This document shows, in pieces, positions 1,267 to 57,962 of a stretch of 64,000 nucleotides of DNA; within the stretch, counting starts at the first letter, position 1; every line of letters starts with the position of its first letter. Below the pieces are notes generated by a model, which had not been told where the DNA came from, searched no databases, and saw only the letters and a program-made list of their open reading frames with translations. The DNA comes from a bacterium (lineage in GTDB: Bacteria; Patescibacteriota; Minisyncoccia; JACQLN01): the NCBI GenBank assembly GCA_030697795.1, contig JAUYOV010000004.1:77886-141885 (forward strand). The letters are read 5' to 3'. Made by a program: the position numbers and the translations under genes.

Positions 1267-3309
1267 TCAACCGACCATGTTTAAAAACTCACGCTCGGAA
1301 ATTATTTTTACACCAAGCTTCTCTGCTTTATCAAATTTAGACCCTGCATTTTCGCCGGCAATAACGTAATCGGTTTCTTTGGAAACTGACGATGATACAT
1401 CTCCGCCCATTAGGCGGATTTTTTCTTTGGCAGAATCGCGCGACAAAGTTTCCAATGTACCGGTTAAAACAAAAGTTTTACCCGCTAATTTTTTGGAGAT
1501 TTTAGGCGGAGACAAAACAGTAATTTGGCACCTAAGCAACTTGGTAATTAGTTGCCTATTTTCTTTGTTTTCAAACCAAGCTTTAATGCTGGCCGCAGCT
1601 TTCTCGCCCACGCCCGGAACTTTTTTTAAGTCTTCCTCACTAGCTAGGGTTAAATTTTCGATACTATTAAAATATACTGCGAGTAAATTCGCTGTCTCCT
1701 CACCTACGTGAATTATACCCAAAGCATATATAAACCTAGCTAAAGATATTTTTTTAGATTTTTGTATAGAAGCTACTAGTTTATCAGCCGAGATTTCGGC
1801 AAAACCTTCCAAACCTAAAAGATCTTTTGATTCTAATTTAAAAATATCGCTGGAATCTTTAACCAAGCCCTCATCCACCAGCTTATCTACAATCTCGCTA
1901 CCCAAGCCCACCATATTAAAAGCTTTTTTAGAAACAAAGTGATACAAGCCTTCTCTGTGTTGAGCGGGACATTTTTTATTTATGCATTTACGCGTAGCTT
2001 CACCCGCGAGACGCTTAATTTCGCCACTACATACCGGACATTTTCTAGGAAAATAAAATTCTTTAGAATTTTTTGGGCGTAATTTTTTTAAAACATTAAC
2101 TACGTCCGGAATAACATCCCCCGCGCGTTGCACAATAACCGTATCGCCTATTCTAATATCTAATCTTTTTATTTCATCTTCGTTATGAAGCGTGGCTCTA
2201 GTCACATTTACACCGTTAATATCTACCGAATCTAAAACTGCCACCGGCGTTAAAACTCCGGTGCGGCCAACTTGTATAATAATATCTAAAACTTTTGTCG
2301 TGGCTTCCTTGCCCGGAAATTTAAAAGCCACAGCTCCGCGCGGAGCTTTACCTACCACGCCTAATTTAGAAAAAATTTGATTATTGTTAACCGAAATAAC
2401 AAGCCCATCTATCTCCCAAGCCATCTTTTCGCGTTTTTTATAAATCTCGTTCCAAAAATTTGTAACGTCATCTATATTTTTAAGTTCCCTAGCTTCGGAG
2501 TCTGTCTTAAATCCTAAAAGTTTTAAAAGTGAATGTTTTTGGCTGTGTTCAGTTTGACCAAGATCTGTTACCAAATCATAAGCCAAAAAATCTAGTCTGC
2601 GTTTAGCTACAATAGCTGGATCCAGCTGGCGAACCGTGCCGGCCGCAGTGTTTCTAGGATTGGCGTATTCCGAAAGACCCAGCTTTTTTTGTTCTTGGTT
2701 AATTTTCTCAAAAACGGATTTTGTCATAAAAACTTCACCGCGTATTTCAATATCGCCCGCTGAAATTAACTTTAAAACTTCGTTAGAATCTAGCCCAAGT
2801 CTTTTTATTTCCGATTCTTTTAACTCGCGCAATTTTAAAGGTATGGCTTGTATTGTTTTTATATTTTCGGTAACATCTTCGCCTGTTTTACCATCGCCGC
2901 GTGTGGCGCCAATATTTAAAACTCCTTTTTTATAGGTTAAAGACACGGCAAAACCATCTATTTTAAGTTCGCCCAAAAAATCTAATTTCTCGTTTGGCAC
3001 AATTTTTGAAATTCTGGCGAGCCACGCTTCAAATTCTTCGGCAGTAAAAACATCTTGCAAGGAAAGCATAGGGACGTGGTGGCCTACTTTTTTAAAAAAC
3101 GGCAAAGGCTTGCCCCCCACACGCTGTGTGGGAGAATCTGGAGTTATTAAATCTGGGAATTTGCCCTCTAACTCGGAAAGTTCATGCTTTAAGCTATCTA
3201 GAGCTGAATCGGAAATTTCTTGTTTATCTAAAACATGATAAAGATAGCGGTGGCGTTCTACCTCCGTTTTAAGTTTTTCTATCCTAATTTTGGCTTGTTT
3301 TTTGTCCAT
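1267..3309 (-). CDS. ligA: NAD-dependent DNA ligase LigA
   Basis: KxDG adenylation motif (LKIDGFAVSL), Zn-finger cysteines, HhH and a BRCT tail. The likely start is MDKKQAK at 3309; the ORF-track start at 3351 is an upstream extension. Confidence 0.9.
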   Translation of the reverse strand: MDKKQAKIRIEKLKTEVERHRYLYHVLDKQEISDSALDSLKHELSELEGKFPDLITPDSPTQRVGGKPLPFFKKVGHHVPMLSLQDVFTAEEFEAWLARISKIVPNEKLDFLGELKIDGFAVSLTYKKGVLNIGATRGDGKTGEDVTENIKTIQAIPLKLRELKESEIKRLGLDSNEVLKLISAGDIEIRGEVFMTKSVFEKINQEQKKLGLSEYANPRNTAAGTVRQLDPAIVAKRRLDFLAYDLVTDLGQTEHSQKHSLLKLLGFKTDSEARELKNIDDVTNFWNEIYKKREKMAWEIDGLVISVNNNQIFSKLGVVGKAPRGAVAFKFPGKEATTKVLDIIIQVGRTGVLTPVAVLDSVDINGVNVTRATLHNEDEIKRLDIRIGDTVIVQRAGDVIPDVVNVLKKLRPKNSKEFYFPRKCPVCSGEIKRLAGEATRKCINKKCPAQHREGLYHFVSKKAFNMVGLGSEIVDKLVDEGLVKDSSDIFKLESKDLLGLEGFAEISADKLVASIQKSKKISLARFIYALGIIHVGEETANLLAVYFNSIENLTLASEEDLKKVPGVGEKAAASIKAWFENKENRQLITKLLRCQITVLSPPKISKKLAGKTFVLTGTLETLSRDSAKEKIRLMGGDVSSSVSKETDYVIAGENAGSKFDKAEKLGVKIISEREFLNMVG

Positions 3310-3383
3310 AATTGACACTCCTAATATAGCAAACCAAGACAAAAATAGCACCCTTTTTAAGCACGGGTACTATATACGAAAAG

Positions 3384-10174: not shown

Positions 10175-10290
10175 ATAATATGCTAATCAACAAATTATGC
10201 GAATGATACGAATATTTTATACGAACTTTAATAACCTGTATTCGTTATTTTATTTGTATAATTCGCATACATTCGTATATTGGTATATTA

Positions 10291-11361: not shown

Positions 11362-11553
11362 GCCAATTTTGTCTGCGAGAGTAGCGAGCAGTTACAAAAT
11401 TGAGCACCCCGCCCTTTAGGTTAATAATATATAATGCGAGTAAATTATTTTTTATCAAACTTGATTTCATATCTAATTATCTAATTAGACTATTTTTATT
11501 CAAAGGGCGGGGTAAGGTTTCGCGACCAATCGCTCCGCTCTTGGGCCAAGCCC

Positions 11554-11922: not shown

Positions 11923-12080
11923 ATTATAATATCTAATTCCTAATTTCTAATAAAATGCCTAATATCTAAACCCTAATGACAAATCAATGCCAAACGATTG
12001 AATGTCAAAGAAATAATAATTTATAATTAGTCATTTGGATTTGATTGGACATTTGTTATTAGAAATTTGTCATTTCAAAT

Positions 12081-13820: not shown

Positions 13821-14038
13821 GTGCCTTTTTTGTCTAAATTTTAGAGCTTCTTTGTAGCGAATAAAATTTAGCTACAAAAGAGAGCACCCCGCCCTTTATA
13901 TCAACTATAATTGTTTTGATTAAATTTATTTTCACTAGATTTGATTTCGTGCTTATTTTTTATATATTTTGCTTAAAGGGCGGGGTTAGGTTTGGCAACC
14001 AAGAAACGTTCACTTCGTTCCGTTTCTTGGGCCAAGCC

Positions 14039-14341
14039 CTAATCTGAGAATGGATTACTTTTTCCTGTTGTTTGCGTTTCTATGGGCACACCTGGGGGTA
14101 TTTGCAAACTTTTAAATCTTTCATCTTCTAAAATTTTAACTTTTAAATCCGAAACCTGATCAGCCACTGTGGCGCTGGGAGTTCCAGCTACAACTGCGCT
14201 TTGTTCTGGTTGAACTGGCGGAGGCGAGCTACTGCCAAAAAAACCAAAGTAAAGAATCCCAAAACTAACCAAAACCAAAACTCCAAAAACTGCTAATAAA
14301 ATCCTTTTCTTTTTTATTTCTTTTGTGACAATTACAGCCAA
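14039..14341 (-). CDS. small membrane-anchored hypothetical protein (possible PilP analogue); TTG start abuts a repeat
   Basis: One N-terminal TM segment, then a Pro/Ser-rich linker. Lies between pilO and pilB. No SD sequence. Confidence 0.3.
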   Translation of the reverse strand: MAVIVTKEIKKKRILLAVFGVLVLVSFGILYFGFFGSSSPPPVQPEQSAVVAGTPSATVADQVSDLKVKILEDERFKSLQIPPGVPIETQTTGKSNPFSD

Positions 14342-14414
14342 GTTAGCTTTTAGCTTTTAGCTTTTAGCTTTCTAGAAAGATTTTCTAAAAAGCTAAGGGG
14401 CTAGGAAGCTAATA

Positions 14415-15008
14415 TTATTTCTTAAGAATATATGTTTTCATGCCGATATTATAATCTATGGCGGGGTCAATATTGGGCAAACTTTCTCCTTCAGCTGTTT
14501 TCTTTTTTGTTATAGAAAAAGAAATCTGGCCGACATCTATGATTCTTAAACTTTTTTGCACCGCCGCCAACCAAGATTTAAAAGAAGAATAAGTGCCCGA
14601 AGCATTTATATTTATGAGCAACTTACTTATGGTTTCTTTGGATACAGTTTGGCCCCTGCGGTTAGAAGTAACACCTGTAGTTTCGTTGGGGGCTTCAATA
14701 TTTACAGAGACCAAGCTAAGACCATTTTGGTTGGCTAAGCTTTCCATAATGCTTATTAATTCCGGCTTAAATTCAGAACTGGGAATAGCTTGCTCTAACC
14801 GCTCCACATTACTTTTTTGAGAATCTAAAACTTGGTTTATAGAATTTAATTTTTCAATAATTTTTTTCTCCAATTCTATAGAGGTCTTTTTTAAACCAAC
14901 CTCTTTTCTTAAAGTTGAAACATCACCCCAGGTTGGTAGAAGCAAGAACCACACAACTAAAAAGGCGCCGGCAAAAACAATTGAATTAATTATTAACTTG
15001 CTATTCAT
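14415..15008 (-). CDS. PilO-like pilus assembly protein
   Basis: N-terminal TM segment plus coiled-coil; position in the pilMNO order. Confidence 0.5.
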   Translation of the reverse strand: MNSKLIINSIVFAGAFLVVWFLLLPTWGDVSTLRKEVGLKKTSIELEKKIIEKLNSINQVLDSQKSNVERLEQAIPSSEFKPELISIMESLANQNGLSLVSVNIEAPNETTGVTSNRRGQTVSKETISKLLININASGTYSSFKSWLAAVQKSLRIIDVGQISFSITKKKTAEGESLPNIDPAIDYNIGMKTYILKK

Positions 15009-15577
15009 TTCTTAATTATAAGGTCTTTAGCAAACACAATCTTTAAACCAAAATTAACTTTGCCCTCGGCCGACAAGGCAATGTTGGAAGACATCACTGA
15101 AACAACATGGGGCGTATCTTCAAGAATTTTGATCTGTTGAGCTAAAGCGGCATAACTGGGAGCCGCACCCGACATATTTATAATATTATCCGCATCGGAA
15201 GCTTCTAATGTTTTAAAAGTTATGGAATTTAGGGTTTTAGCCTCCAATACCTCAAAAAATAACGTCCAGTATTTATGCTCATCTAAAACTCCCTTAAAAA
15301 TTTCTAAAACTGAATTTAAGTTTTTTAAACGATTTTCCAAACTAACATCTCTTTGGCTGGTCAAATTTTGTAATTCGGTATTGAAAGCTTTGGCTTGATT
15401 ACTTAACTGATACTTCCAAAAATAAAGGCCACCGGCCACCACAAGAAGTAAGGCTATAAAACCCAAACCCAACTTTGAAAGAGCACTTAACTCTATATCT
15501 GGTTTTTTAAAAGAAGAAAACTTGGGCAAGCCATCGCCACCCGATTCTTCTTTTGGAATTAATGAAATATTTTCCAT
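15005..15577 (-). CDS. PilN-like pilus assembly protein
   Basis: Single TM segment and coiled-coil; overlaps pilO by 4 nt. Confidence 0.5.
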   Translation of the reverse strand: MENISLIPKEESGGDGLPKFSSFKKPDIELSALSKLGLGFIALLLVVAGGLYFWKYQLSNQAKAFNTELQNLTSQRDVSLENRLKNLNSVLEIFKGVLDEHKYWTLFFEVLEAKTLNSITFKTLEASDADNIINMSGAAPSYAALAQQIKILEDTPHVVSVMSSNIALSAEGKVNFGLKIVFAKDLIIKK

Positions 15578-15664
15578 ACTTTTCGCTAATATACGAATTG
15601 ATTCGAATATACTAATAAGAATTCATTCGCTATATTAGTGTTGATTAGTTATATTGGCGAAAAC

Positions 15665-16777
15665 TCATAGTCCTCGCATAGCCAGTCCAATCGAAACCGC
15701 TAAATTTGAACCCAGCTCACGCCTTAAAGTTTGTTCTAGAACAGCCTCGTATTTAATCTTGCCCAGCGGATTGCCCACGGTCACAACCACGCCCAACTTC
15801 TTGCTAAGATACTCTGCCATCCCCGGCATATTAGCGGTGCCACCTGTTAAAATTATTTTATCTATTTTCCTGTTCTCTTTCTTGCTAAAAATACTCTCCA
15901 TCCTTTCTATTTCGCTAACCAACCTATCCACAAAAGGACCAATCACTTGAGCCAGACCCTTGTCGCTAGCCGCCATGGCTACGCCCGAACCCTTTTTTAG
16001 TTCTTCGGCTCTTTTGGTATCAACATTTAAGCTATGCCCAATGATCTTGGTTAATTCTTTGCCAGAAAGATCAGCACTGTGGCTCATAAAAATAAAACCT
16101 TTATGCAAAATTGTTAAATTTGAACTTCTGGCGCCCATGTCTACTAGCATAATAGAGCTTGGATCGCCTCCAGCCAAAGAGCGGGCCAAACTAAAACTTT
16201 CGGATTCCAATGAGGCAAGTTTTAAACCAGCCCCCACAGCTATTCTTTGATATTTAGAAACAACTTCTTTAGGTACAGCAATAAGCAGCACCATTATTTT
16301 TTCTGGACGATTCTGGTTAACACCCACAGGAGCTTCTCCAGCTTTTAAAGCAGTAGTGGTTTCTTCGTGCGGCAGAACTATCCAATCCAAAACAACTTCC
16401 GATAACGGCACAGGAATATACGACCGAGCTTCAAAGGGTACTGCGCTTTCTAATTCTTTTTTATCCAAATTCGGTAACTCCATAACCGTAAGAAAACTAG
16501 AAAAAATAGGAATAGACATAACTGCTGTATCCGCCTTGATCTTTGTTTTTTCTAAAAGCTGTTTTATTAGCGCAGAAACATCACCCTCGGCTACCTTTAA
16601 ACCAGAGGGAATACTTGAACCATTGGTTATCTCTCCAAAAAAATCGGAATCTGAAATTAATCCGTAATTAGCCAACTTAATGAGGTTATCTTCTTTTTCT
16701 AGTTCGACGATCTTGATGGAGGAAGTACCAACATCAACGCCAAGCTGGCGCCGGATTTTACGACTAAATGGCCACAT
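15665..16777 (-). CDS. pilM: type IV pilus assembly ATPase-like protein PilM (actin fold)
   Basis: LGVDVGTSSIKIVEL N-terminus and the DxG actin-like motifs. Confidence 0.85.
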   Translation of the reverse strand: MWPFSRKIRRQLGVDVGTSSIKIVELEKEDNLIKLANYGLISDSDFFGEITNGSSIPSGLKVAEGDVSALIKQLLEKTKIKADTAVMSIPIFSSFLTVMELPNLDKKELESAVPFEARSYIPVPLSEVVLDWIVLPHEETTTALKAGEAPVGVNQNRPEKIMVLLIAVPKEVVSKYQRIAVGAGLKLASLESESFSLARSLAGGDPSSIMLVDMGARSSNLTILHKGFIFMSHSADLSGKELTKIIGHSLNVDTKRAEELKKGSGVAMAASDKGLAQVIGPFVDRLVSEIERMESIFSKKENRKIDKIILTGGTANMPGMAEYLSKKLGVVVTVGNPLGKIKYEAVLEQTLRRELGSNLAVSIGLAMRGL

Positions 16778-16885: not shown

Positions 16886-17548
16886 ATGATGATATCAAAG
16901 AAGATTGATTCTCTATTATTTCCGTCATTTTGCATAAACTGCAAAAGCGATACACCCGAAGAACCGCCGAGTTTGCGCTGGCTATGTTTAAACTGCCATA
17001 GGTTATTGATAACTAAATGGGAAAAAGTTTCTTTTAAGCCAGATATTAGCGAAAGCTATTATATTTTTGATTACCAAAAAGATAAGCTAGCTAAAAAACT
17101 AATTCATACACTAAAATACGATTTTGTTAAAGAAATCGCCGATACTTTTAATGTAGGTATAGAAAGCGAGCGTATTAATTTTAGAAGGCTAGTGTTTGAT
17201 TTTATTGTGCCGGTTCCCTTACATAGACGACGCTTAAAAGAACGGGGATTTAACCAGAGCGAATTAATTGCTAAAAAAATTAGCGAGATAACAGAAAAAC
17301 CAATAATTGATAATATTTTAAAAAGGAAAAAATACCGTAGGCCCCAAATGGAAGTTAAAAACCGCGAAGCTAGAATAAAAAACACTCAAAATATATTTGA
17401 GTGTGTCCAACACCAGGTGTTGGACAATAAAGTAGTTTTGCTGATAGACGATGTGGCTACAACTGGCGCTACCTTAAAAGAATGTGCCCGCGTTTTAAAA
17501 AACGCAGGCGCACGTAGTATTTTGTCGTTTACACTGGCGCAGGATTAA
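16886..17548 (+). CDS. comFC: competence protein ComFC (phosphoribosyltransferase-like)
   Basis: N-terminal Zn-ribbon (CINCKS...CLNCH) and PRTase motif LLIDDVATTGATL. Confidence 0.8.
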   Translation: MMISKKIDSLLFPSFCINCKSDTPEEPPSLRWLCLNCHRLLITKWEKVSFKPDISESYYIFDYQKDKLAKKLIHTLKYDFVKEIADTFNVGIESERINFRRLVFDFIVPVPLHRRRLKERGFNQSELIAKKISEITEKPIIDNILKRKKYRRPQMEVKNREARIKNTQNIFECVQHQVLDNKVVLLIDDVATTGATLKECARVLKNAGARSILSFTLAQD

Positions 17549-17580
17549 AAAAGAGGCGGTTTGTTTTCCGCCTCCTATCA
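17549..17580 (-). terminator. hairpin gaggcggtttgttttccgcctc followed by a T-run on the minus strand (terminates ORF 17594-18052)
   Basis: seen directly in sequence. Confidence 0.45.
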
Positions 17581-17593
17581 ACTTGGATACTTT

Positions 17594-18052
17594 TTAGGGC
17601 TCAGTATACACACCTTGGGGATAGCGCTCTGACTGAAAAAAAGGAACCGGCATCTCACACTCTTCTGCATGAACTAATTGCGCCGCTCGAGTAATGAGGG
17701 TAGAAGCAATCAATGCCACTGGACGGTGAAGATAAATAAATCCCCTTCGGAATTCCACTTTCATCATATCAAACATTCTACAACCAGATCCATAGCCCCA
17801 TACACCAGTGTTCTGGGGACCAGCCGTTATACATAATTCCCAACTATTGAGCCCCTCTTGACCTAAAGGAGCAGAACATAAAATAAAATGCTTTAGTTCT
17901 TTTTCATCGCAAACAGCTATAATGCCTAACTCTTCTGCTAGTTCCCGAACCCGATAATGTCCATAAAAAATACGCTCGTATTCCTGTCCCACTCCTTGTT
18001 TTTCGGAAAACTCCTCAAAAAGCATCTTGGGAATATCTGTTATAGAATACAC
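17594..18052 (-). CDS. orphan hypothetical protein, cassette A (GTG start, AAGGAG RBS)
   Basis: Higher GC than its flanks. Its leader and hairpin are shared with ORF 18360-18569. Confidence 0.4.
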   Translation of the reverse strand: MYSITDIPKMLFEEFSEKQGVGQEYERIFYGHYRVRELAEELGIIAVCDEKELKHFILCSAPLGQEGLNSWELCITAGPQNTGVWGYGSGCRMFDMMKVEFRRGFIYLHRPVALIASTLITRAAQLVHAEECEMPVPFFQSERYPQGVYTEP

Positions 18053-18170
18053 GGCTATATTCTCCTTGTTTAAAATGAAAAAACTATCCTTTTCTGTTTA
18101 CCAACAAAATACCATCTCCAACCATACCCGTCAATTCAACTTAGCATGAGCTTGCGATCGCAAGCTCGGG

Positions 18171-18317
18171 TGTGTCCAACACCAGGTGTTGGACACTAAA
18201 GTAATTTTGCTGGTGGACGATGTGGCCACCACCGGTGCCACATTAAAAGAGTGCGCCCGCGTTTTAAAAAACGCGGGCGCAGATAGAATATTGTCGTTTA
18301 CATTGGCGCAGGATTAA
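18171..18317 (+). pseudogene. duplicated 3' end of comFC (approx. 147 nt, ~90% identical to 17401-17548)
   Basis: Direct alignment; the fragment encodes ...VQHQVLDTKVILLVDDVATTGATLKECARVLKNAGADRILSFTLAQD*. Confidence 0.75.
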
Positions 18318-18359
18318 AAAGGGATTGCCGTCTTTTTGGCAACCCCCTAGGTTTTACTT

Positions 18360-18569
18360 CTAGCCGTCACCGCGGCAGTCAGGGCAACACTGTTGATCGT
18401 CTAGATGCTCGACACGAATTGCGCGTCCGCATCCTCCTTTGCAACGCTTGGCAAAACGGCTGATCAGCAGAAATCTTTCATCTGCTAATTCATTTTCGCC
18501 AAGCCATTGATTTTTGCTCTGTGCTGGCGACTGTTCATTACTCGTTGGTTGCCTAGTCAAATGACCCAT
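18360..18569 (-). CDS. orphan small Cys-rich protein, cassette B (zinc-ribbon-like CxxxC...CCPDC)
   Basis: aaaAAGGAGG RBS 6 nt before the ATG; GC about 50%; terminator hairpin downstream at 18318-18345. Confidence 0.4.
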   Translation of the reverse strand: MGHLTRQPTSNEQSPAQSKNQWLGENELADERFLLISRFAKRCKGGCGRAIRVEHLDDQQCCPDCRGDG

Positions 18570-18771
18570 ACTTGGCCTCCTTTTTTAGGTTTAAAAAACT
18601 ATCCTCTGCCGTTCCCCAAAAAACTACCACCTCCAACCCCAGCCGTCAAATAGATATACCGAGATAGCGATCGCTATCTCGGTATATACTAAATTTTATT
18701 TTTTATTATTTTTTTCTGTCCAACACCTGGTGTTGGACAATAAAGTAGTTTTACAAAATCGGGACATTGTT

Positions 18772-20909
18772 CTATTTCTTTCTTCCCGAGATTATTTCTT
18801 CTGCAACATTTCTTGGTACTTCTTCATAGTGAGAGAACTCCATCGTATAAGACGCTCGGCCTTCGGAAAGAGAACGTAACTGCGTGGAATAACCAAACAT
18901 TTCTGACAAAGGCACTTTAGCGTCTATAACTTTTAAAGCCGAATCGCCCACCGCGCCAGAACCGCCCCGAGCGGTCATTTGTTCTATGCGAGCGCGCTTA
19001 GAAGATAAATCGCCGGTAACTTCGCCCAAAAACTTTTCGGGTACAATAACTTCTACTTCATAATAGGTTCCAGCAAAACGGGACTGGCTCTTTTAGCGCC
19101 TTCCTGAAAAGCCATACTGCCCGCAATTTTAAAAGCCATTTCCGAAGAGTCTACATCGTGGTAAGAACCATCATAAAGCGTAACTTTAACATCTACCACG
19201 GGGTAACCCGCCATTACGCCCTTATCTTTTGATTCCTTGATGCCTTTTTCAACCGCTGGAATAAATTCTTGAGGAATAGCACCGCCTTTAATGGCATCAA
19301 CAAATTCAAAACCACCGCCACGAGGTAACGGTTCCACTCTTAAACGCACATGGCCATATTGACCACGGCCACCCGACTGGCGAATATATTTGCCTTCGGC
19401 TTCGGCTTCGGCTTTTACAGTTTCTTTATAAGCCACCTGCGGCCGGCCCACATTGGCGTCTACTTTAAATTCCCGTTTCATTCGGTCTACGATAATTTCT
19501 AAATGAAGCTCGCCCATACCGGCAATTAAAGTGTCGCCAGTTTCTTCATCGCCTTTTATTCTAAAGGTTGGATCTTCATCGGCTAGCCTGTGTAACGCCA
19601 AACCCATTTTTTCTTGATCGGCTTTGGTTTTAGGTTCAATCCGCACAGATATAACCGGTTCGGGAAAAACTATTTGTTCTAAAATTATTGGCTGAGCTTC
19701 ATCGCAGAGCGTGTCGCCGGTTTTGGTATATTTTAAACCAACGGCCGCACCGATTTCACCAGCAAAAATTTCTTTAACATCTTCGCGGTGGTTAGCGTGC
19801 ATTCTTAAAATACGGCCTATTCTTTCTTTTTGGTTTTTATTTACGTTTAAAACATAAGAACCCGATTCTAACTTTCCGGAATATACTCTAAAAAAAGTTA
19901 GCTGGCCCACAAATGGATCGCTCGCCACTTTAAAAGCTAAACTCGAAAACGGAGTTTCATCTTTAGCTTCACGCTCTTCTTCGGTATTGGTTTTTGGATT
20001 AACACCTTTTACCGGTGGCAAATCGGATGGGCTGGGTAAATAATACAAAACTGCGTCCAACATAAACTGCACACCTTTATTTTTTAGAGCTGAACCACAC
20101 AAAACTGGAATAATTTGGCCAGAAATTGTAGCTTCGCGCAAAGCTTTTCTTAATTCGGCTAAATTTGGTTTTTCGCCAGCCAAGTAGCGTTCCATTAAAG
20201 CATCATCGGTTTCAACAATTTTTTCTACAAGTTCGGCGTGGTATTTTTCGGTCTCCGCTTTTAAGTTTTCTGGGATTTCTATTTCTACAATTGTTTCACC
20301 ATGTTCGCCTTCAAAATTGTAGGCCTTCATTTTTATTAAATCTATAATACCTTCAAAATTTTCTTCTAGGCCGATGGGAATTTGTATCCTGACAGCTTTG
20401 TCGGTTAACCTATCTAAAATAGAAGCGTAAGAACGCTCAAAAGAAGCTCCCATACGGTCTAGCTTGTTTATAAAACAAACCCTAGGCACTTTATATTTAT
20501 CGGCTTGGCGCCACACAGTTTCGGATTGAGGTTCTACACCGGCCACGCCATCAAACACAACCACAGCACCATCTAGCACTCTTAAAGATCTTTCTACTTC
20601 CACGGTAAAATCCACGTGCCCAGGCGTATCTATAATATTGATACGCATTTCTTTATCTTTATTTTTTGAACCTAATACCCTATCTTCGCTTGGTGTCCAA
20701 AAACAAGTTGTAGCGGCTGCGGTAATGGTAATACCGCGTTCTTGTTCCTGTTCCATCCAGTCCATAATAGCTTCGCCTTCATGAACTTCGCCAATTTTAT
20801 GAGAAACGCCGGTGTAAAACAAAACACGCTCGGAAACAGTTGTTTTTCCGGCATCAATGTGAGCCACAATACCGATATCGCGAGTGCGTTCTATGGGATA
20901 ATCTCTCAT
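18772..20909 (-). CDS. fusA: elongation factor G, interrupted by an apparent -1 frameshift at about 19050-19056 (two ORFs: 19053-20909 and 18772-19029)
   Basis: The N-terminal part (618 aa) ends ...LLEPIMK*. The next frame continues [27 protein letters not shown]..., which is the conserved EF-G C-terminus. The observed ATGAAGTAGAAG should read ATGAAGGTAGAAG. Confidence 0.85.
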
Positions 20910-21027: not shown

Positions 21028-21495
21028 TTACCAGCTGAAATGCGCAAAAGCCTTATTAGCTTCGGCCATACGATGAGTGTCGTTTCTTTTTCTAATAGCG
21101 TTGCCTTCGTTCTTGGAAGCCAAAATAATTTCTTCGGCTAATTTTTTATCTATAGATTTTCCTTTGCCATTTCGCGCCGCCGTAACCAACCAGCGCATAG
21201 CTAAGGTTAACTTTCTTTCACCCCGAACTTCGCGCGGCACTTGATAATTAGCGCCACCTATTCTACGAGATTTAACCTCTAAATGAGGCATAACATTTTT
21301 AACAGCTGTTTCAAAAATTTCCAAACCCGGTTTGTTTTCTTTCTTTTCTACATTGGCTAAAGCCGTATAAAAAATCTTTTCGGCTACTCTTTTTTCGCCA
21401 TCTTGCATTATTTTATTTATAAATTGAGAAACCAAAACACTGCCGTATTTAATATCCGGCTTAATATCGCGTTTGATGTTTATTTTTCGTCTCAT
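21028..21495 (-). CDS. rpsG: 30S ribosomal protein S7
   Basis: Full-length S7 homology. Confidence 0.95.
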   Translation of the reverse strand: MRRKINIKRDIKPDIKYGSVLVSQFINKIMQDGEKRVAEKIFYTALANVEKKENKPGLEIFETAVKNVMPHLEVKSRRIGGANYQVPREVRGERKLTLAMRWLVTAARNGKGKSIDKKLAEEIILASKNEGNAIRKRNDTHRMAEANKAFAHFSW

Positions 21496-21569: not shown

Positions 21570-21998
21570 CTATTTGGGAGCTTTGGCTCCATACTTGCTC
21601 CTTCTTTGCATTCGGCCTTCTACACCAGTAGTATCCAATACACCACGCACAATATGATACCTAATACCCGGCAAATCTTTAACCCTACCGCCCCGCATCA
21701 TCACCACCGAGTGTTCTTGCAAATTGTGGCCAATACCTGGGATGTAGGCTGTGACTTCCATACCATTAGATAACCTAACACGGGCAATTTTACGCAAAGC
21801 CGAGTTAGGTTTTTTAGGTGTCATGGTTCTAACCGAGATACACACACCTCTTTTAAAAGGAGAATTAAAATATGAATACCTGTTTTTTAAGCTATTGAAC
21901 GCAAAAGTAAGCGCTGGAGATTTGGATTTGCGCTTAGAAGTTTTTCTATTTCGTTTTATTAACTGATTTATTGTCGGCATATTTTGCTCATGAGACAC
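21570..21998 (-). CDS. rpsL: 30S ribosomal protein S12 (true start probably MPTINQL at 21980)
   Basis: PTINQL...[10 protein letters not shown]...VRGG motifs. Confidence 0.95.
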
Positions 21999-22106: not shown

Positions 22107-22215
22107 GGGCTTTCGTACACCGAGCATACGATCGTAAGCTCGGTGTATATATCCAAATAATGTAAAAAATAAAAAAAGATAATAGTAATTAACTAAAAAA
22201 CAAGGTCAAGATACT

Positions 22216-22836
22216 CTATGCCATCAAGGGAAACCCAGTTATAAAGCGAAAAATAATAGGTATTATAGGTGTAACTAGAGGGAATAAAAAAAATATAAAA
22301 ATAAGAACCAAAAACATACCGTATCTTTCTAGCATGTTAAGCTGTCTTTCGTATTTATAAGGCAAAACAGCGGCTAAGATTTTAGAACCATCTAACGGCG
22401 GTATCGGCACTAAATTAAATAAGCCCAAAAGAATGTTTATATAAACTATAAGTGAAATAGCGATAGCTGTTTGAGCCGGAATGATAGGAATAAATCTAAG
22501 GGCCAATCCAAAAGCCAAAGCTATAGTAAAGTTTGATACAGGGCCAATGCCAGCCACCAGTGCCGGACCCCATTTTTGGTTTTTTAAATTATAGGGATTA
22601 TACGGCACAGGTTTAGCCCAGCCAAAAATAAAGCCTCCGCCTATATAAGAAAGTAAGGGCACCAAAAAAGAACCCATAAAATCCAAATGTTTTAAAGGAT
22701 TAAAACTTAAACGGCCGAGATCGCGAGCGGTGTTATCGCCCAATTTTTTAGCCATTAAGCCGTGCGAAACCTCGTGCACCACTACGGACATAATAAGCAC
22801 GGCCAAGTTGAATATTAGAAGCACTGTTTGATCCAT
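22216..22836 (-). CDS. site-2 protease family zinc metalloprotease (M50)
   Basis: HEVSHGLMA (HExxH) in a polytopic membrane protein. Confidence 0.7.
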   Translation of the reverse strand: MDQTVLLIFNLAVLIMSVVVHEVSHGLMAKKLGDNTARDLGRLSFNPLKHLDFMGSFLVPLLSYIGGGFIFGWAKPVPYNPYNLKNQKWGPALVAGIGPVSNFTIALAFGLALRFIPIIPAQTAIAISLIVYINILLGLFNLVPIPPLDGSKILAAVLPYKYERQLNMLERYGMFLVLIFIFFLFPLVTPIIPIIFRFITGFPLMA

Positions 22837-37224: not shown

Positions 37225-39129
37225 CTATTGCTTCAAAATCTTATACATTGATACCTGAGGATCTTTATAAACTATTTTTAAGCCCCTGTCTGTAATAAAG
37301 TTATTATTACCAGTAATTTGTTCTTCTAACGGCCCCACATAAACATAACCTGTTCCGATCTCTGACCAATCCCTGCGCATTGTTTTGTAACGACCCGACA
37401 ACTCTATTATCTTTTCTTGCCTTTTTTTGGTTACAAAATCTTGATCAGAATTTGAGGAGTAAATACTGTTAAAAGTATTGTATCGGCTAGAAAAATAACC
37501 TCCGTACAAATTACCAAAACTATCGTTAAGATTACTATCCTTGTCGGGAAAACAATCATAAGCTTCGCATTGCGGATCAAGTTTACCAGCTAAACGTTGC
37601 TCTAAAACTTCCGGTCTCACTCCAAATAATTTGTGGCTTAAAAGGTATCTGTCTTCCATTTCTTTGACACTCAACAATGTTATAAAGGCCGTCGGCAAAA
37701 AAGGCCTAGAGAAGGTGTGAGTATTAAGATAAAAAGATGTTAAAGTTGAAGGAGAAACTATCACGCTTTCGGGCGAAAGATTGTGATTGACCCATTTCCA
37801 GGAAACTGCGACCTCACTCGGAAATTTATAGTAATCTACAATATGTTCTTGCAGAGAATAATTTATTAAAACTATATTGATTATTTTTTTGGCAACAATA
37901 AATAAAGATAAAACTACTAAGCCCGTCAAAAAAACTTTTTTTAATCGTAACCGTTTAAGTGTAACTCTACTAGAAAGATCGTGAAGTACAGCAAAAACAA
38001 TTATAAAGATAATCGGAGATATAGACCTCCTAAAAAAATGGGGCACCGGTAAATAACCAACCACCATCTGGATATTCCACACCAGCATCATTCCACCAAT
38101 AAGACCCAAAAACAAAACGAACTTATTGCGGTCATGGTGGCGGTAGACAAAATAAACCACCAAGACTAATAGCAAGTAAACAAAATAGTCCGCAATATTG
38201 TCTCTAGCTACTCCCAAAGAATGTCCAAAAACTACCCCCGCTCTTAAGATAAAATCCTGATATGTATCTAGAGATCTAAAATTGTTATACATCCAAAAAT
38301 AAGGAATAGTGGTAACTGCCAAAGCAGAAAACAAAACAAGGTAAGATTTGATGCGATTTCTATCCCGCGCAACTAGCGCATACAGAAAAAGAACCAGCAA
38401 CACAACCAACCAGTAAACCCAGTGGTGAAAATAAGTATAAAACATTAAACCGGCAAAAAATCCTGAAAATAGGGCAAATTTTAGAGTGGGTCTTGTCCAA
38501 AAAATGAAAAAAGATATAATAGCGGCTAGATAGAACGGATAGGTCAATAAAGGTTCATCCACTCTCGCTAAATAAAGTTGGTCAAATTGAGTCCTAACAA
38601 AAGGCAAAAAATTGTTTATAAAGAAAGCCTGAAATTCCGAGAAGCCCTGCCATTTGTAAAAAGGTAATTTTAAAACAATCGGAGATAAAACGGCAGTTAA
38701 AGAAAAAAACCACGACCAAACTCGCGATCTAAATATGATTTGCCCCAGAACATAAAAAAGGGTAAATATAATACCTGAAAATACAAATTGAGCACCTAAA
38801 TAAGCTAAATCTATATTGCCTTTGAATAGAAAAATAAAAACCGAAAACAATGTGGATGGTATTAAGTTTTGAATAGTCGGCGCGCCAGGGGAACCATAAA
38901 GCTCCGAGGGTGGAAAATGTCCGTCGTAAATTTCTCTAGCTCGAGGCAAATAGGCTTGTAGCGAATCTCGGTAAGTTTTATACTGCGCCAAAACAAAAAC
39001 ATTGTCTGATTTTTCAAAATGTTTCTTTACGAATAGCGGAGGTCCTATATATAGCGCGCCTACCAGTAGAGCGCCTAAAAAAACCAATGCACCGGCAAAA
39101 AAATTATTTTTAAAAATATCATCTATCAT
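37225..39129 (-). CDS. large polytopic membrane protein, GT-C-like glycosyltransferase candidate (paralogue of 49244-51091)
   Basis: Shared N-terminal region ...YLPRAREIYDGHFPP... and >12 TM segments. Confidence 0.45.
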   Translation of the reverse strand: MIDDIFKNNFFAGALVFLGALLVGALYIGPPLFVKKHFEKSDNVFVLAQYKTYRDSLQAYLPRAREIYDGHFPPSELYGSPGAPTIQNLIPSTLFSVFIFLFKGNIDLAYLGAQFVFSGIIFTLFYVLGQIIFRSRVWSWFFSLTAVLSPIVLKLPFYKWQGFSEFQAFFINNFLPFVRTQFDQLYLARVDEPLLTYPFYLAAIISFFIFWTRPTLKFALFSGFFAGLMFYTYFHHWVYWLVVLLVLFLYALVARDRNRIKSYLVLFSALAVTTIPYFWMYNNFRSLDTYQDFILRAGVVFGHSLGVARDNIADYFVYLLLVLVVYFVYRHHDRNKFVLFLGLIGGMMLVWNIQMVVGYLPVPHFFRRSISPIIFIIVFAVLHDLSSRVTLKRLRLKKVFLTGLVVLSLFIVAKKIINIVLINYSLQEHIVDYYKFPSEVAVSWKWVNHNLSPESVIVSPSTLTSFYLNTHTFSRPFLPTAFITLLSVKEMEDRYLLSHKLFGVRPEVLEQRLAGKLDPQCEAYDCFPDKDSNLNDSFGNLYGGYFSSRYNTFNSIYSSNSDQDFVTKKRQEKIIELSGRYKTMRRDWSEIGTGYVYVGPLEEQITGNNNFITDRGLKIVYKDPQVSMYKILKQ

Positions 39130-44602: not shown

Positions 44603-47405
<2,803 letters not shown>

Positions 47406-47409
<4 letters not shown>

Positions 47410-47865: not shown

Positions 47866-49230
47866 TTATTTTTGCGATAAAAAACATCTTTCTAGTAAAT
47901 CCACACTTCTTTTGTAGGATAATCCGTCAATAAACTCAACATACCGATCAACGATTTTCTTCCGGTGGCCGCTATCTAATTTTGGACTTTCTAAATATAA
48001 GCTGATTAGTTTTGGCAAATCATCATCTATTTTAACCAATCGAATCGCACCACTTTGATAAATTGGCCGATAATGATCGAAGTCGTAGGCCAGAGCATAA
48101 ACACCTAAGTAACCAATGTTAATAATTGGCTTATCAAAAATACAGGCTTCAATAGAGATAGTTGAAGCATAATTAATATTTAGATCAGTGTACTTAAGTG
48201 AATATTTTAAATTTAAAAGATCTTGATAATTCATTTCTACTCGTCCAGGTACCACCTCTCGACCAGCCATTTCAATGTAAAAATTCGGCAACCCCGTAAA
48301 TTCGGTGTAATTGCCTGGCAGATCTAATGGATGAAGCCGAACAAAAATATTAACATAGGGAATAACTTTTTTCTTTCGAAGCTCAATTAAATCATAGATA
48401 TATTTTTTCTGGAAAGGATAGGCCTTTGTTACGGTAGTATATAAAACTGTAGGATATTTTGGATCCAACCCTTTCGATTTTATAAAGTCGGCCCGAGTTG
48501 GTTCAGATTCTTCTTTTTTAAAATATGGGTCAAAACGCGGTGTGCCTGAAACAAAAACTTGATTCTCTGGATAATTATGGATTGTCTCCGCTTCATGTTT
48601 CATAATTCCATTCCAAGGGATCAAGAAATCAGCTTTACGAATATGTTTAGAATTCATGGTTAAATTATCCCAACTAAAATTAACCGCCACAGTGGATAAA
48701 CCCAGGCGTTTTGACAAAAGAATTATCTCTGCCTCCCAAGGATCAAAACCCGGAGTAGCCGTAATAACCAACTTCGGTCGATATTGTTTTATCAGCGACC
48801 GAAAAAAAACTGAATTCGGCAAAACCATAGCTTCTATAGCCGTAAAAAAATTCACGGTAAGAAACCTTGAAAAAGGTAAACCTATAGTTCTAAACAAACG
48901 TCTCTTCCAATTATTTTTATAATTTGGCCGCTTATAAAAATGCTGAGCGGAAGCTAAATAATCAAATTCATTTACCCAACATATCCTTAAAAATTTAAAC
49001 ACACTCCAAAATTTTGGATTCTCCAACTGCCTCTGAACATAGACAGTATCGGCGGATTGATAATATTGATCCGCCTTATTCTGACCCAAAAAAGGAGTTA
49101 AAACTATAACCCTATACTTAGATGCAAGATATTCAATATATCTTGTCCGCAAAAGATCAGTAGCAAAAACATAATTAGGCACAGCCAGAAACACCGTATT
49201 CTTCATAGTAATTAAACTCAATAAAGGCAA
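47866..49230 (-). CDS. CDP-polyol phosphotransferase, TagF-like, paralogue 2
   Basis: FSWDNLT, GTPRFD, ASTISIEACIFDKP. Confidence 0.65.
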   Translation of the reverse strand: MPLLSLITMKNTVFLAVPNYVFATDLLRTRYIEYLASKYRVIVLTPFLGQNKADQYYQSADTVYVQRQLENPKFWSVFKFLRICWVNEFDYLASAQHFYKRPNYKNNWKRRLFRTIGLPFSRFLTVNFFTAIEAMVLPNSVFFRSLIKQYRPKLVITATPGFDPWEAEIILLSKRLGLSTVAVNFSWDNLTMNSKHIRKADFLIPWNGIMKHEAETIHNYPENQVFVSGTPRFDPYFKKEESEPTRADFIKSKGLDPKYPTVLYTTVTKAYPFQKKYIYDLIELRKKKVIPYVNIFVRLHPLDLPGNYTEFTGLPNFYIEMAGREVVPGRVEMNYQDLLNLKYSLKYTDLNINYASTISIEACIFDKPIINIGYLGVYALAYDFDHYRPIYQSGAIRLVKIDDDLPKLISLYLESPKLDSGHRKKIVDRYVEFIDGLSYKRSVDLLERCFLSQK

Positions 49231-49243: not shown

Positions 49244-51091
49244 CTATTTGATAACGCGATAAATCTTGACTAAAGGGTTGTGATAAACCAACTTCAAATT
49301 TCGATCATAGGAGAAATCAACTTGGCCAAACTGTTTCTCCCATGGACCATAATACACGTAATCCGAGTTAGTTTCATACCAACTGGGCAATATATTCTCA
49401 TATTGTTTTAACACCTCCTGCGGATTCTTATAAAAATCACTAATACCATATCCAGCCGACAGAAGGTACCATGGAGTTTTTTCAAAATTTATCTGACTGT
49501 CTTTAGGACACAACTTGTTAGAACAATCAATTTTAAAATAAACATCCAACCGACGAGCTAAAACTTCATTAGAAACTTGAAATAACTTATTGCTAGTCAA
49601 AAATCTATCTTCAATTTCGGAATCAGTTAAGGGCGACAAAAAACCGGAGGCCAAATATGGACGAGCCGAAGTATAAGATGCCAGATATAAAGAAGTAATC
49701 AACGATGACGACACTACACGGGGTTCACCTTCAACACCCTTATTGATCCAACGCCATGAAGAAACAATATCTTGAGGGAAATCATACCTTCTGGAAAGCT
49801 CTAGGGGAGGATTTTTCAAAATAAAAACATTAATTGTGTGCTTGCTTATCAATAATGCCATCAGTACCACCAACACAATATCGATTGCTACTTTTATTTG
49901 TTTAGATTTTTCTTGGCTATAGTTTTTAAAAAAATCATGAACAAGATTAAATAAAATAATATAAATAATCAAACCGATAGGTTTATTGAAATGAGCCAGT
50001 GCAAAACCGAAGCCAAAAAGCGTAGGCGTATACCAAACCAGAAACATTGTGACTACTAGACATATAAAAACACACCCCTTGGCTGGATTGATCTTTTTCT
50101 TAAAGTAAAAGAAATAAACTCCGGTCAAGATTACCAAATAAATTATATGATTGAGAATTAGCGTCCAGCCCCAAGAGGAACTAATATAGTCAAATGTTAA
50201 TAACCGACCAGCTTCCTTACCCAAACGAAAAATGTAATCAGCACTATAGTTGATCTGCGAGAAATTAAAGTAATTAATTACATATGGGATTAGGATCAAA
50301 AAGAACGTTGATAACAGGATCAAATAATTTTTTAATCTGGGTTTGCCCGACTTTCTTGAAAATAAAGTCCATAAAAAACACACACCCAGAAATATCGCCC
50401 AAAAAAGCCAATAGTGCAAATAAGTATAAGCCAGCAAACCAGCAAAAACACCAGCGACAAGGGCGGTAACTTTTTTGGGTCTGACCCAAAAATAATAAAA
50501 TGATATTATGGCCGCTAACAAGACGGGATAAGTTAACATAGGATCGTCTATGCGGGCAAAATACATTTTATCAATAGGGGTTCTAACAATGGGAATAAAT
50601 TTTTTTAAAGTGATGCCCAAAAAATCACGATCATAATATCTAAATATCAGTTGGGGAATTTGAGTTAAAACACCTGTTAACGCAAAAAATATAGCCCACA
50701 ACTTGGAACGAATCATAAGCCAACCCAACCAAAAAAACAGCAAAAAAATTATGATAGCAAACACAAACTGGGCACTGATATAGGCCCAGTTAAGATTGCC
50801 ATTAAATAAAAATAAAAAGGGGGAAAACATGGCCGACGGCAAGGGGTTTAATGGAGATAATCCATTCTCTCCAGAAAAAACATTGCGAGGAGGCCAGTGG
50901 CCATCAAAAACCTCGCGAGCGCGGGGCAAGTATTGGAAAAATTCATCACGGTAGCCGCTTTGCTGGGCTAATAAAAAATCAGTGCCTTTTTGAGCAAGAT
51001 TATGCCAAATTAAAACAGGCGGTAAGATGTTCAGAGCACCCACCACCAAAGCCAAAACAATTAACACTACAATAAATTTGTTATCAATCAC
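49244..51091 (-). CDS. large polytopic membrane protein, GT-C-like candidate (paralogue of 37225-39129)
   Basis: YLPRAREVFDGHWPP shared block. Confidence 0.45.
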   Translation of the reverse strand: MIDNKFIVVLIVLALVVGALNILPPVLIWHNLAQKGTDFLLAQQSGYRDEFFQYLPRAREVFDGHWPPRNVFSGENGLSPLNPLPSAMFSPFLFLFNGNLNWAYISAQFVFAIIIFLLFFWLGWLMIRSKLWAIFFALTGVLTQIPQLIFRYYDRDFLGITLKKFIPIVRTPIDKMYFARIDDPMLTYPVLLAAIISFYYFWVRPKKVTALVAGVFAGLLAYTYLHYWLFWAIFLGVCFLWTLFSRKSGKPRLKNYLILLSTFFLILIPYVINYFNFSQINYSADYIFRLGKEAGRLLTFDYISSSWGWTLILNHIIYLVILTGVYFFYFKKKINPAKGCVFICLVVTMFLVWYTPTLFGFGFALAHFNKPIGLIIYIILFNLVHDFFKNYSQEKSKQIKVAIDIVLVVLMALLISKHTINVFILKNPPLELSRRYDFPQDIVSSWRWINKGVEGEPRVVSSSLITSLYLASYTSARPYLASGFLSPLTDSEIEDRFLTSNKLFQVSNEVLARRLDVYFKIDCSNKLCPKDSQINFEKTPWYLLSAGYGISDFYKNPQEVLKQYENILPSWYETNSDYVYYGPWEKQFGQVDFSYDRNLKLVYHNPLVKIYRVIK

Positions 51092-51209: not shown

Positions 51210-51458
51210 TTATTGGGAATTATTTTTGTGGATATTGACCCCATGGCGTTTAAGTATTTTTTTTATGTCGCCGACTTTTTTTACAGAAACAATTTCGTCC
51301 AAACTAAATTCTACATTGAAGTTTTTTTCCAATTCCGTTACCAGCACCAACCCATTAAATGAATCCCAACTTTCGATATCCTCTGGTTTGGTTGAGTCAG
51401 ATATGGTTTTAGCACTAATTTTTAAAACTTTTTCTAAAATTTCTTCAACAGTTTTCAT
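51210..51458 (-). CDS. acyl carrier protein
   Basis: ESWDSFNGLVLVTELE with the phosphopantetheine-attachment Ser. Confidence 0.7.
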   Translation of the reverse strand: MKTVEEILEKVLKISAKTISDSTKPEDIESWDSFNGLVLVTELEKNFNVEFSLDEIVSVKKVGDIKKILKRHGVNIHKNNSQ

Positions 51459-53016
51459 AGCTAATCTTTATAAAATCTGGAACTTTATAAGCTTGAGCCA
51501 AACTATGCTTATAGGATGTTACATTATCATTTTCCCTTGTTAAGTTAAAGCCGTTGTTAGGATAGAAATTTTGACAGGGTTGGTTTTTGGCAGTCGGTAT
51601 AAACTCGCCTAAAACAGATGCGGCTCCGCATGTTTTAGCTTGAGCTAAAACATGACCAAGAAAAACTTTTTCTATCTCTCTACCCAAAATTCTGCAACTC
51701 AATAAAAAATTATCTATATACCAAATACTGTCTTTAGGTTCAATCATACAAACACCCACAATACCATAATCTCCAAATTTATCTTTAACTTGTACGGTCC
51801 ACACCTTCCAACCATCGGCCACAAAATCTCCAATTTCTTTTTCTGAATAGCGCCGAGTTGTTAAATTAAACTGATTGGTTTTTTGGGTAAGTTGGGACAC
51901 TCGAGCTAAACTATTAGAGTTGATTGGAGCTATCTCAATTTTTAAATCTAGCTGTTTGAGAAAATCTTCTACACCACCCAAAGAAGATTGTAATTTTTTT
52001 CTTTTATTTTCTTCCGCATACATTTTCCCACGATTTTTATCTTCTTCGGTCAAAGCCGAAGAACTGAAACCTTGATAGCCTTTTAAGCTCTCTGGAGTCA
52101 AAACTGCAACTTCTGGAAACCTGTTTTTAATACTTTCTCTTTGGAAAGAATCATCATCAATAAAAACAAAACTATCTAAACTAATATTTAATTCCGAAGC
52201 CAACTCTATCATATTTTTAGCTTTATCTTCCCAGTTGATTTTCATTGCGATAAAATTGTTAGCCCGAAGAACCATATCCGGATGTTCATTTATTACAGAT
52301 AAAGAATCGTCATAATTATTTCTACTATTTATGGCCAAAATAATACCCTTGTTATAAAGTTCTAAAATATATTTTTGCAGATCTTGTTCGGGTTTTATTT
52401 CTTTATGATCGCTTTCACCTACGATGCCGTTCCACAAAGTATTATCTAAATCAACGACTAGGCATTTTTTTGTTGATCCGCTTATGGCAATTACTTCTGC
52501 AATAAGTTCTTTGTTTGAAAAACTTGGGAACGCTTGAGGCGCCAGCCTTAAATCGCCTAATTCTTTATATTTTGTATACCAATGATCTTTAAATTTTTCC
52601 TTAACAGTGCTGCCCCAAATAAGCTTAGTCTTAAAACCGCCATCGGATAGTTTATTAGCTAATTCTTTTATTTGATTTTTATCTATACCAATTTCATCTA
52701 TTAAAAAATAAACCAAGTCTGGTTTAAATTTATATAATTCACTTTCCAAGTTTAAAATATCTTGTGCATATTGATCATATCCTCCAAGATAAGTATCTGC
52801 CCAAATATTATAAAAAACTGCTTGAACCTTAAGAACTTCCGGCAAAGCCTGCAAAGTAAAGTTACTTAAAAAAGCCACTCTTATTTTTCTAAAATAATGT
52901 GGTTGCTTGTCGGCATAACTAGGTAATTCTTCGGCTAAAGACAAATAATCTGCCACCGAACCACCGCTTTTAGCCATCAAATTTGAAACCTCAAGTTGTA
53001 ATTCACTAAACTGCAT
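51445..53016 (-). CDS. FkbH-like HAD-IIIC phosphatase / acyltransferase (glyceryl-ACP-forming enzyme family)
   Basis: VVDLDNTLWNG HAD motif I plus a C-terminal GNAT-like domain. Confidence 0.7.
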   Translation of the reverse strand: MQFSELQLEVSNLMAKSGGSVADYLSLAEELPSYADKQPHYFRKIRVAFLSNFTLQALPEVLKVQAVFYNIWADTYLGGYDQYAQDILNLESELYKFKPDLVYFLIDEIGIDKNQIKELANKLSDGGFKTKLIWGSTVKEKFKDHWYTKYKELGDLRLAPQAFPSFSNKELIAEVIAISGSTKKCLVVDLDNTLWNGIVGESDHKEIKPEQDLQKYILELYNKGIILAINSRNNYDDSLSVINEHPDMVLRANNFIAMKINWEDKAKNMIELASELNISLDSFVFIDDDSFQRESIKNRFPEVAVLTPESLKGYQGFSSSALTEEDKNRGKMYAEENKRKKLQSSLGGVEDFLKQLDLKIEIAPINSNSLARVSQLTQKTNQFNLTTRRYSEKEIGDFVADGWKVWTVQVKDKFGDYGIVGVCMIEPKDSIWYIDNFLLSCRILGREIEKVFLGHVLAQAKTCGAASVLGEFIPTAKNQPCQNFYPNNGFNLTRENDNVTSYKHSLAQAYKVPDFIKISYENC

Positions 53017-56609: not shown

Positions 56610-57962
56610 TTAGCTAAGCCGTTTTATTAAAAAATCAGCTACTCGTCTGCCGGCTTGGCCATCAACACTTAAACATTGTGAACTAACTAATTTCCTCCTA
56701 CCTTCATTATCTAATCTGGGATCATCTAAATAGTTATTCAACCATTTTACTAACTCGTTTTCGTTATTGGCTAAACGAACCCCCCCAGTTTTTAAAATAA
56801 ATTGATAGTGAGCTACTTTATAAGCCCATAAAACAAAATTCATGGGATGGATCTTTCGTTCAAATTTTATATTAATTATAGGCTTATCAAAAATAGCTGC
56901 GTCAATCATCATAGTTGAAGGATAACCCACTACCACATCCGAATAATAAAGAGTATCAGCCAAACTCCTAAAATCGGCAAAATTCATATCCCAATCCATA
57001 CCCCTTTTACTGGAAAATCTCTTACCGGGAATTTGGAATATAAACTTATTTTTATAACTCTTTTTAACCACCACTTCATCATTGGGAGGAAATCTAACAA
57101 TCACTTGACAAGGAAAATTCAAGCGTCCGCTAGATATTATTTCATCAAAAAACTCTAACATATCCCAATCGTCATCACTAGCTGTTCGGCCTACTGGTAA
57201 ATAGAGAATATTTTTTTTATCTCGACTTAAACCTAATTTTTCATAAAACTGATCGGCTGGTGTTCTTTTTTCTTTAAAATAATAATCAAAATGGGGCACA
57301 CCTACTGCAATTATTTGTCTTTCTGGAATATCAATGTATTTTACAGCATCATCTTTAACTAAATCATTATGAACCATCAACCAATCCGGCAGAAGTCTTA
57401 CCATGGCTCGAGCTGTTATTTTATCCCAGGAATTAATAAGGCCTACGGTAGTAACCCCCCTATGTTTAGCTTCACGGAGCATGGCAATTTCAACACCACC
57501 AAAAAGATGCGCCAAAAATACTAGACTGGGTTTATATTTATCAAAGTAAGAAGAGAAAAAATCTTCCGAAATAAGATACCAATCCAGCCAGCGTACAATC
57601 CGACGAAAAAACCTTCTAGCAAAAATACGATTAAAAAAGTATCGATATAGAAACTTAATAAAGCTTTTATCTGAGTTGAATAACAACTTTCTTTTAATAT
57701 CAATTGTGGCAGTGTTAATTAGGTTAAATTTGATAGCACCGAATAACTTTTGTAATAAACCTTTAGCAATATAGTTCTCAATTACTTGATAAACAATATT
57801 TGGACCATTAAATTCTTTCTTATAATATTCTTTCTTGGCTTCGCTATCAACAAATAAAACCAACCTGACATAAGGGGTCTTAGCCAATTTTTTATAAATG
57901 TCGGTGCGTAATATATTTCTAGCTTCTACACCTTGAAAAATTGTTACAAAAATAGTCTTCAC
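56610..57962 (-). CDS. CDP-polyol phosphotransferase, TagF-like, paralogue 3
   Basis: INSWDKIT, GVPHFD, STMMIDAAIFDKP. Confidence 0.65.
   Translation of the reverse strand: MKTIFVTIFQGVEARNILRTDIYKKLAKTPYVRLVLFVDSEAKKEYYKKEFNGPNIVYQVIENYIAKGLLQKLFGAIKFNLINTATIDIKRKLLFNSDKSFIKFLYRYFFNRIFARRFFRRIVRWLDWYLISEDFFSSYFDKYKPSLVFLAHLFGGVEIAMLREAKHRGVTTVGLINSWDKITARAMVRLLPDWLMVHNDLVKDDAVKYIDIPERQIIAVGVPHFDYYFKEKRTPADQFYEKLGLSRDKKNILYLPVGRTASDDDWDMLEFFDEIISSGRLNFPCQVIVRFPPNDEVVVKKSYKNKFIFQIPGKRFSSKRGMDWDMNFADFRSLADTLYYSDVVVGYPSTMMIDAAIFDKPIINIKFERKIHPMNFVLWAYKVAHYQFILKTGGVRLANNENELVKWLNNYLDDPRLDNEGRRKLVSSQCLSVDGQAGRRVADFLIKRLS

Follow-up and report, generated by a model that had tools for sequence, protein, structure and literature searches.

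A one-base frameshift in fusA of a Patescibacteria contig, probably an artefact of the deposited sequence

The gene for elongation factor G (EF-G), fusA, is interrupted by a -1 frameshift in the window, by which we mean the whole 64-kb stretch of DNA that was analysed (G+C = 37%). Exactly one base is absent, and we consider it probable that the missing base is an artefact of sequencing, consensus calling or assembly. According to this reading, the real DNA would keep the third A of an AAA run and the living cell would encode an intact EF-G of 712 amino acids; in the deposited sequence, the absence of this A creates an immediate TAG and shifts the frame of domain V. We regard the result as ordinary and of use mainly for annotation. 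Its main value is one of quality control: the locus should be entered as an intact fusA that carries a probable sequence error, or else be flagged, and the lesion is not to be counted as a gene loss in a reduced CPR genome.

The split gene and its context

By comparison with the NCBIfam models, the 618-residue fragment alone scored 999.3 bits against the EF-G equivalog TIGR00484 (cut-off 659.4), covering profile positions 3-605 of 691. The score against the EF-G2 model NF009377 was 454.5, under its cut-off of 890, and TIGR00484 outscored the EF-G2, Tet(M), RF3, LepA, and TypA models. The order rpsL-rpsG-fusA, on the same strand, was found both in the window and in the relatives, the nearest of which are metagenome-assembled genomes of Patescibacteria (CPR), mostly from Hainich groundwater. 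The broken gene is the canonical EF-G, that is, the ordinary housekeeping fusA of a Patescibacteria/CPR bacterium. The coordinates of these genes and of the other features described are collected in Table 1.

A single uninterrupted frame of about 700 codons is expected of a canonical EF-G. It is absent here, the frame being closed by TAG after codon 618, directly after the residues LLEPIMK, and the rest of the gene lying in the -1 frame. The minus strand at the site reads CTG GAA CCT ATT ATG AAG TAG AAG TTA (ATG 19061-19059, AAG 19058-19056, TAG 19055-19053), and the lesion is located 283 nt upstream of the fusA stop. The Pfam domains GTP_EFTU, EF-G_D2, EFG_III, and EFG_IV were all found within the 618-residue ORF, which covers domains G, II, III, and IV together with the opening 7-8 residues of domain V. 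Domain V carries on unbroken in the -1 frame, where the translation of 19056 to 18772 matched EFG_C over profile positions 9-88 of 89 (E=1e-24). It abuts the 0-frame G-II-III-IV part at the exact residue and completes the five-domain order of EF-G. With the AAA run one base short, G19056 must serve both as the third base of the lysine codon and as the first base of the valine codon; when it is read twice, the two parts fuse into a protein of 712 residues with no internal stops. The original prediction had placed a -1 frameshift in fusA between an ORF at 19053-20909 and an ORF at 18772-19029 (85 residues, minus strand, in the neighbouring frame of the ORF list). Both coordinates and frames were confirmed by the ORF list, by Pfam, and by the repaired protein.

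Table 1. Coordinates of fusA, of its operon neighbours, and of other features of the window.
Feature	Position	Strand	Description	Basis
fusA 5′ part	19053..20909	(-)	618 codons, premature TAG 19055-19053	ORF list, Pfam, NCBIfam
fusA lesion	19056..19058	(-)	AAG (Lys618) vs AAA-GTA of relatives	Sequence, nucleotide and codon alignments with L001-L005, L009, L010
fusA 3′ part, -1 frame	18772..19056	(-)	Rest of domain V and C-terminus ...ISGRKK, stop	Translation, Pfam EFG_C
rpsG (ribosomal protein S7)	21028..21495	(-)	Directly upstream of fusA	ORF list; relatives' syntenic gene annotated PF00177, same 155-aa length
rpsL (ribosomal protein S12)	21570..21998	(-)	First gene of str-type operon	ORF list; relatives' syntenic gene annotated PF00164
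Cassette-like array	17401-18752		From fusA stop to comF-like gene	
comF 3′ end	17401-17551		True gene end	
comF 3′-end duplicate	18170-18320		151 nt	
comF 3′-end stub	18717-18752		36 nt, ~20 nt from fusA stop	
Palindromes TGTCCAACACCWGGTGTTGGACA	17404, 18173, 18717		23 nt, each opening a comF 3′-end copy	
Array ORF, 152 aa	17594..18052	(-)		
Array ORF, 69 aa	18360..18569	(-)	Cys-rich	
Leaders of array ORFs	18682-18577, 18169-18062		Promoter-like	
Interval without the relatives' two small genes	22147-22222			
Gp49-like and HTH_3 ORFs	582-1236	(-)	120 aa (PF05973) and 99 aa	
DNA ligase gene	1267..3351		NAD-dependent	
Pilus or competence-type cluster	3384-16777	(-)	Part nearest comF: ~10733-16777	
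Surface polymer cluster	29419-63892	(-)	One strand	
CDP-glycerol glycerophosphotransferase-like genes	46048..47409, 47866..49230, 56610..57962		Three paralogues in surface polymer cluster	
Large ORFs of surface polymer cluster	37225..39129, 49244..51091, 51445..53016		No Pfam match	

Comparison with the relatives and selection

Orthologous loci (n=7) were compared from two lineages, the Hainich contigs L001-L005 and L010 and the NCBI assembly GCA_964373235 (L009). The original prediction had pointed to fusA of close relatives as a check, and all seven loci proved to be intact, with ATG AAA GTA GAA (GTT) at the site. The relatives carry ATGAAAGTAGAAGTT and the window the form with two A, ATGAAGTAGAAG, so that ATG AAA GTA of the relatives is found as ATG AAG TAG in the deposited window. 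The nucleotide identity to the orthologous fusA was about 86%. The 30 nt flanking the lesion are identical to the Hainich orthologues, and the change from AAA to AA is a single-base length change in a homopolymer with respect to all the relatives. In the nucleotide alignment with five orthologous genes there was a lone 1-nt gap, exactly at the lesion, and besides it a 3-nt in-frame gap at codon 2. A single 1-nt gap at exactly this position is far beyond chance. The difference at codon 2 is harmless: a Thr codon (20903-20909) is absent in the window and in L009 and present in the Hainich orthologues (MRDYP vs MTRDYP).

The original prediction took the lost base for one G of a GG pair. Considering that the relatives have AAA GTA, the lost base would most simply be one A of the AAA run; this history is the most parsimonious because the loss of a G from AAGG needs an extra substitution. 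The correction leaves the protein effect as it was, since K-V is obtained at the site whichever base, A or G, is restored. When the repaired protein was scored with 8000 EF-G homologues, the best of them were 93-94% identical in amino acids over 100% of the query and 712-713 residues long. No truncated EF-G was seen among the 120 best of the 8000 matches, all 120 being in frame.

Nei-Gojobori counts were made from a codon alignment in which the window was compared with four relatives. After the shift, the 94 codons showed 35-41 synonymous and 8-9 nonsynonymous differences (dN/dS 0.03-0.04), and the 618 codons before the shift gave a dN/dS of 0.05-0.07. The part after the shift was 95-97% identical in amino acids to the relatives. 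Further stops or indels were looked for after the shift in the alignment and none was found, so there was no decay and selection was not relaxed. By these estimates, purifying selection acts on the codons after the shift with no less strength than on those before it; the out-of-frame part has therefore been fully constrained for nearly all of the time since the split from the relatives. Accordingly, the lesion is either absent from the real DNA or extremely recent, and the dN/dS test fits both equally.

Origin of the missing base

Several observations taken together lead us to infer that the real DNA retains the base. The single 1-nt gap falls at a short homopolymer that is followed by the same codon in 7/7 orthologous loci of two lineages; the repaired EF-G is full length and closely similar to intact EF-G; the gene is the canonical one at its conserved operon position; the codons after the shift are as constrained as those before it; and recoding signals were not found. 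Moreover, EF-G is essential and its domain V is required for its action on the ribosome, which also argues for an artefact. Exact look-ups of four proteins of the window (the 618-residue fragment, the comF-like product, a 579-residue secretion ATPase, and S7) gave no match on record. Pattern scans of genome and metagenome contig collections, in which both forms of the site were allowed, found the site in its intact form only, and this in the 86%-identical relatives from Hainich.

Many of the frameshift "pseudogenes" of bacterial assemblies are artefacts of assembly (Cooley and Wright 2024, PMC11017572), a general result with which an artefact in fusA is in line. The fusA lesion resembles those spurious cases in being a single-base indel in a conserved essential gene, with intact relatives and no further decay. 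It differs from them in that the cases of PMC11017572 were proven by reassembly from reads, while the fusA lesion is known from the deposited sequence alone, and in that error-rich assemblies usually hold many such lesions, while this window has one in 64 kb. No other split gene was found in the 64 kb by Pfam scans of about 55 ORFs and by length comparison with orthologues: the ORFs scanned either carried Pfam domains end to end or had orthologue-like lengths, and in a 14-kb block syntenic with the relatives every gene matched the length of its orthologue. Two apparent exceptions were resolved. The epimerase at 63479-63892 is cut by the window end, and the 354-nt gap at 51091-51445 holds an ORF of 82 residues that by eye is acyl-carrier-protein-like. 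The window has 321 homopolymers of at least 6 nt, none of which breaks a gene. A platform prone to homopolymer errors would not be expected to leave just one error, at a run of 3 nt, and the isolation of the lesion in an otherwise clean window gives a real variant somewhat more weight.

The deletion could be real and a very recent null allele, namely, a defective or minor variant taken by the assembler, a lesion of a single amplified cell, or a young pseudogene accompanied by a second fusA in another part of the genome. We regard this as unlikely. In its favour, the assembly is otherwise clean, so a random error is a priori rare; the adjacent 152-residue gene of the relatives has reproducible 1-nt frameshifts, the same lesion being present in three separately assembled records; and the absence of decay after the shift suits a very recent event as well as an artefact. 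On the other hand, the broken copy of this essential gene is the canonical operon copy, a fixed null allele would be lethal, and only one lesion and no relaxation of selection were seen. Small CPR genomes usually have one fusA, which also weighs against a real deletion. The search for a second fusA, another check set out with the original prediction, gave a negative answer within the 64-kb window, where tblastn with the repaired EF-G matched this locus only, in its two frames. The original prediction had ranked a sequencing or assembly artefact above a pseudogene with a second fusA, and the latter above programmed frameshifting. That ranking held on everything testable, an error and a very recent deletion not being separated.

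A real deletion might also be compensated in translation by corrective -1 frameshifting, with some full-length EF-G being made, which we find very improbable. The tRNA-Lys in the P site on AAG, with the slow UAG in the A site, would slip from AAG to GAA (G-U at the first position), and GUA would be read next. Such a slip would give exactly the conserved K-V junction; the 0-frame stop is the codon next to the shift codon, and the frame beyond it is preserved throughout. A tRNA-Lys on AAG is known to be shift-prone, as in the ribosomal -1 frameshifting at CGA AAG of Bacillus subtilis cdd (Mejlhede, Atkins and Neuhard 1999, as cited in PMC5009743), which shares with fusA the AAG lysine codon and the -1 direction. 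In contrast to fusA, cdd reportedly has AAA as its -1 codon (A AAG) and an upstream Shine-Dalgarno-like stimulator, whereas the fusA site has GAA as the -1 codon, no stimulator, and a shift that is not conserved in the orthologues. The slippery heptamer X XXY YYZ is absent from the site (U AUG AAG UAG), so tandem re-pairing is possible for neither tRNA, and the G located 5′ of AAG makes for poor re-pairing. The 20 nt upstream (GUUUUGCUGGAACCUAUUAUG) are without a GGAGG-like motif, that is, without an internal Shine-Dalgarno element. A segment of 136 nt that includes the site and the sequence downstream of it (19075 to 18940) folds at -38.3 kcal/mol, no better than shuffles (mean -38.7, z = 0.11), and an Rfam scan of the window detected tRNA only. 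The frameshift was conserved neither in the fetched orthologous loci nor in the best 120 protein matches, and the relatives are in frame with nearly identical flanks, so that no shift-promoting context has evolved. No report of programmed frameshifting in fusA was found in the literature. EF-G is needed in large amounts, beyond what background slippage could supply. The stricter version of this explanation, in which the deletion is real and fixed, fusA is the sole copy, and full-length EF-G arises by -1 slippage of the P-site tRNA-Lys at AAG-UAG without classical stimulators, is slightly less probable still. An essential translation factor would then depend on recoding, which would be remarkable, and the sequence gives no support to it.

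Rescue by transcriptional slippage was rejected. Frameshifted genes of insect endosymbionts are reportedly rescued in this way at long poly(A) tracts (Tamas et al. 2008), and runs of roughly 9 or more A are said to be needed. The likeness to fusA lies in an essential gene with a 1-nt indel in an A run and in a small AT-rich genome. The difference lies in the run itself, which has two A in the window and three in the relatives, with no long A/T tract at the site; such a run is far too short for a process that needs roughly 8-9 nt or more. Finally, two polypeptides might assemble into a working EF-G, one with domains G-IV and one with domain V that is initiated on its own. Each has an open reading frame, but translation of the second could begin at TTG 19029 at the earliest, which drops the first nine residues of domain V (VEVIVPEKF) and is not preceded by a Shine-Dalgarno sequence, whereas the neighbouring small genes have AAGGAG. 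Considering also that no split EF-G was present among the 8000 homologues scored, this is the least probable of the explanations and hardly credible.

Cassette array and other neighbouring features

A small cassette-like array occupies the interval from the fusA stop to the comF-like gene, with copies of the comF 3′ end as its boundaries. Three copies of the palindrome TGTCCAACACCWGGTGTTGGACA are present in the window, with 0 expected by chance. The duplicate of the comF 3′ end is 88% identical to the true end and in frame to the stop codon. Between the copies there is one small minus-strand ORF each, and neither of the two gave a Pfam, NCBIfam, or PADLOC match. Both are preceded by promoter-like leaders that are 74% identical and contain TTGACG and then AAGGAG. 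A perfect palindrome centred on GCGATCGC lies before each array ORF, and GCGATCGC occurs only twice in the window. Of the modules, that of the 152-residue ORF is the only one present in the Hainich relatives, and L009 has a comF-3′ fragment after fusA with a different cargo. By this comparison, the interval looks like an insertion hot spot with the comF 3′ end as the repeat. Local misassembly by the repeats of the array, including the frameshift, was considered and rejected, the fusA lesion being outside every repeat at its distance from the stop.

Orthologues of the 152-residue gene were located at 8428-8882 in both L001 and L002, at 1076-1530 in L008, and at 8477-8928 in L009. Both the window and the Hainich H41 contigs have an intact copy (AAAATTTTTTTTTATG). 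The H51/H52 strain has it frameshifted near codon 28-29 (AAATTTTTTTTTATG), which is the lesion shared by the three records mentioned above, and L009 has a different 1-nt gap. These frameshifts adjoin a T9 run and may be real decay or phase variation at the A4/T9 tract.

On the other side of the operon, the relatives have a stretch of about 900 bp between the gene of an M50 peptidase and rpsL (L001 3742-4644); it encodes two small proteins (64 and 89 residues, no Pfam match) and is missing from the window. The Gp49-like and HTH_3 ORFs are adjacent with an 8-nt overlap, which is the layout of a putative HigB/HigA-type toxin-antitoxin pair, and adjoin the DNA ligase gene. Another long cluster is one for the synthesis of a surface glycan or teichoic-acid-like polymer. 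Besides the genes listed in Table 1, it includes those of a Wzy_C/TPR protein, NeuB, UDP-GlcNAc 2-epimerase, GDP-mannose dehydratase, several epimerases, an AMP-binding enzyme, a probable carrier protein (by eye), ACPS, and split transketolase-like subunits. Directly past the comF-like gene there is a type IV pilus or competence-type cluster with PilM/PilO-like genes, two T2SSE ATPases, T2SSF, a prepilin peptidase, several N_methyl pseudopilins, and a CARDB protein, and the part of it nearest comF is syntenic with the relatives.
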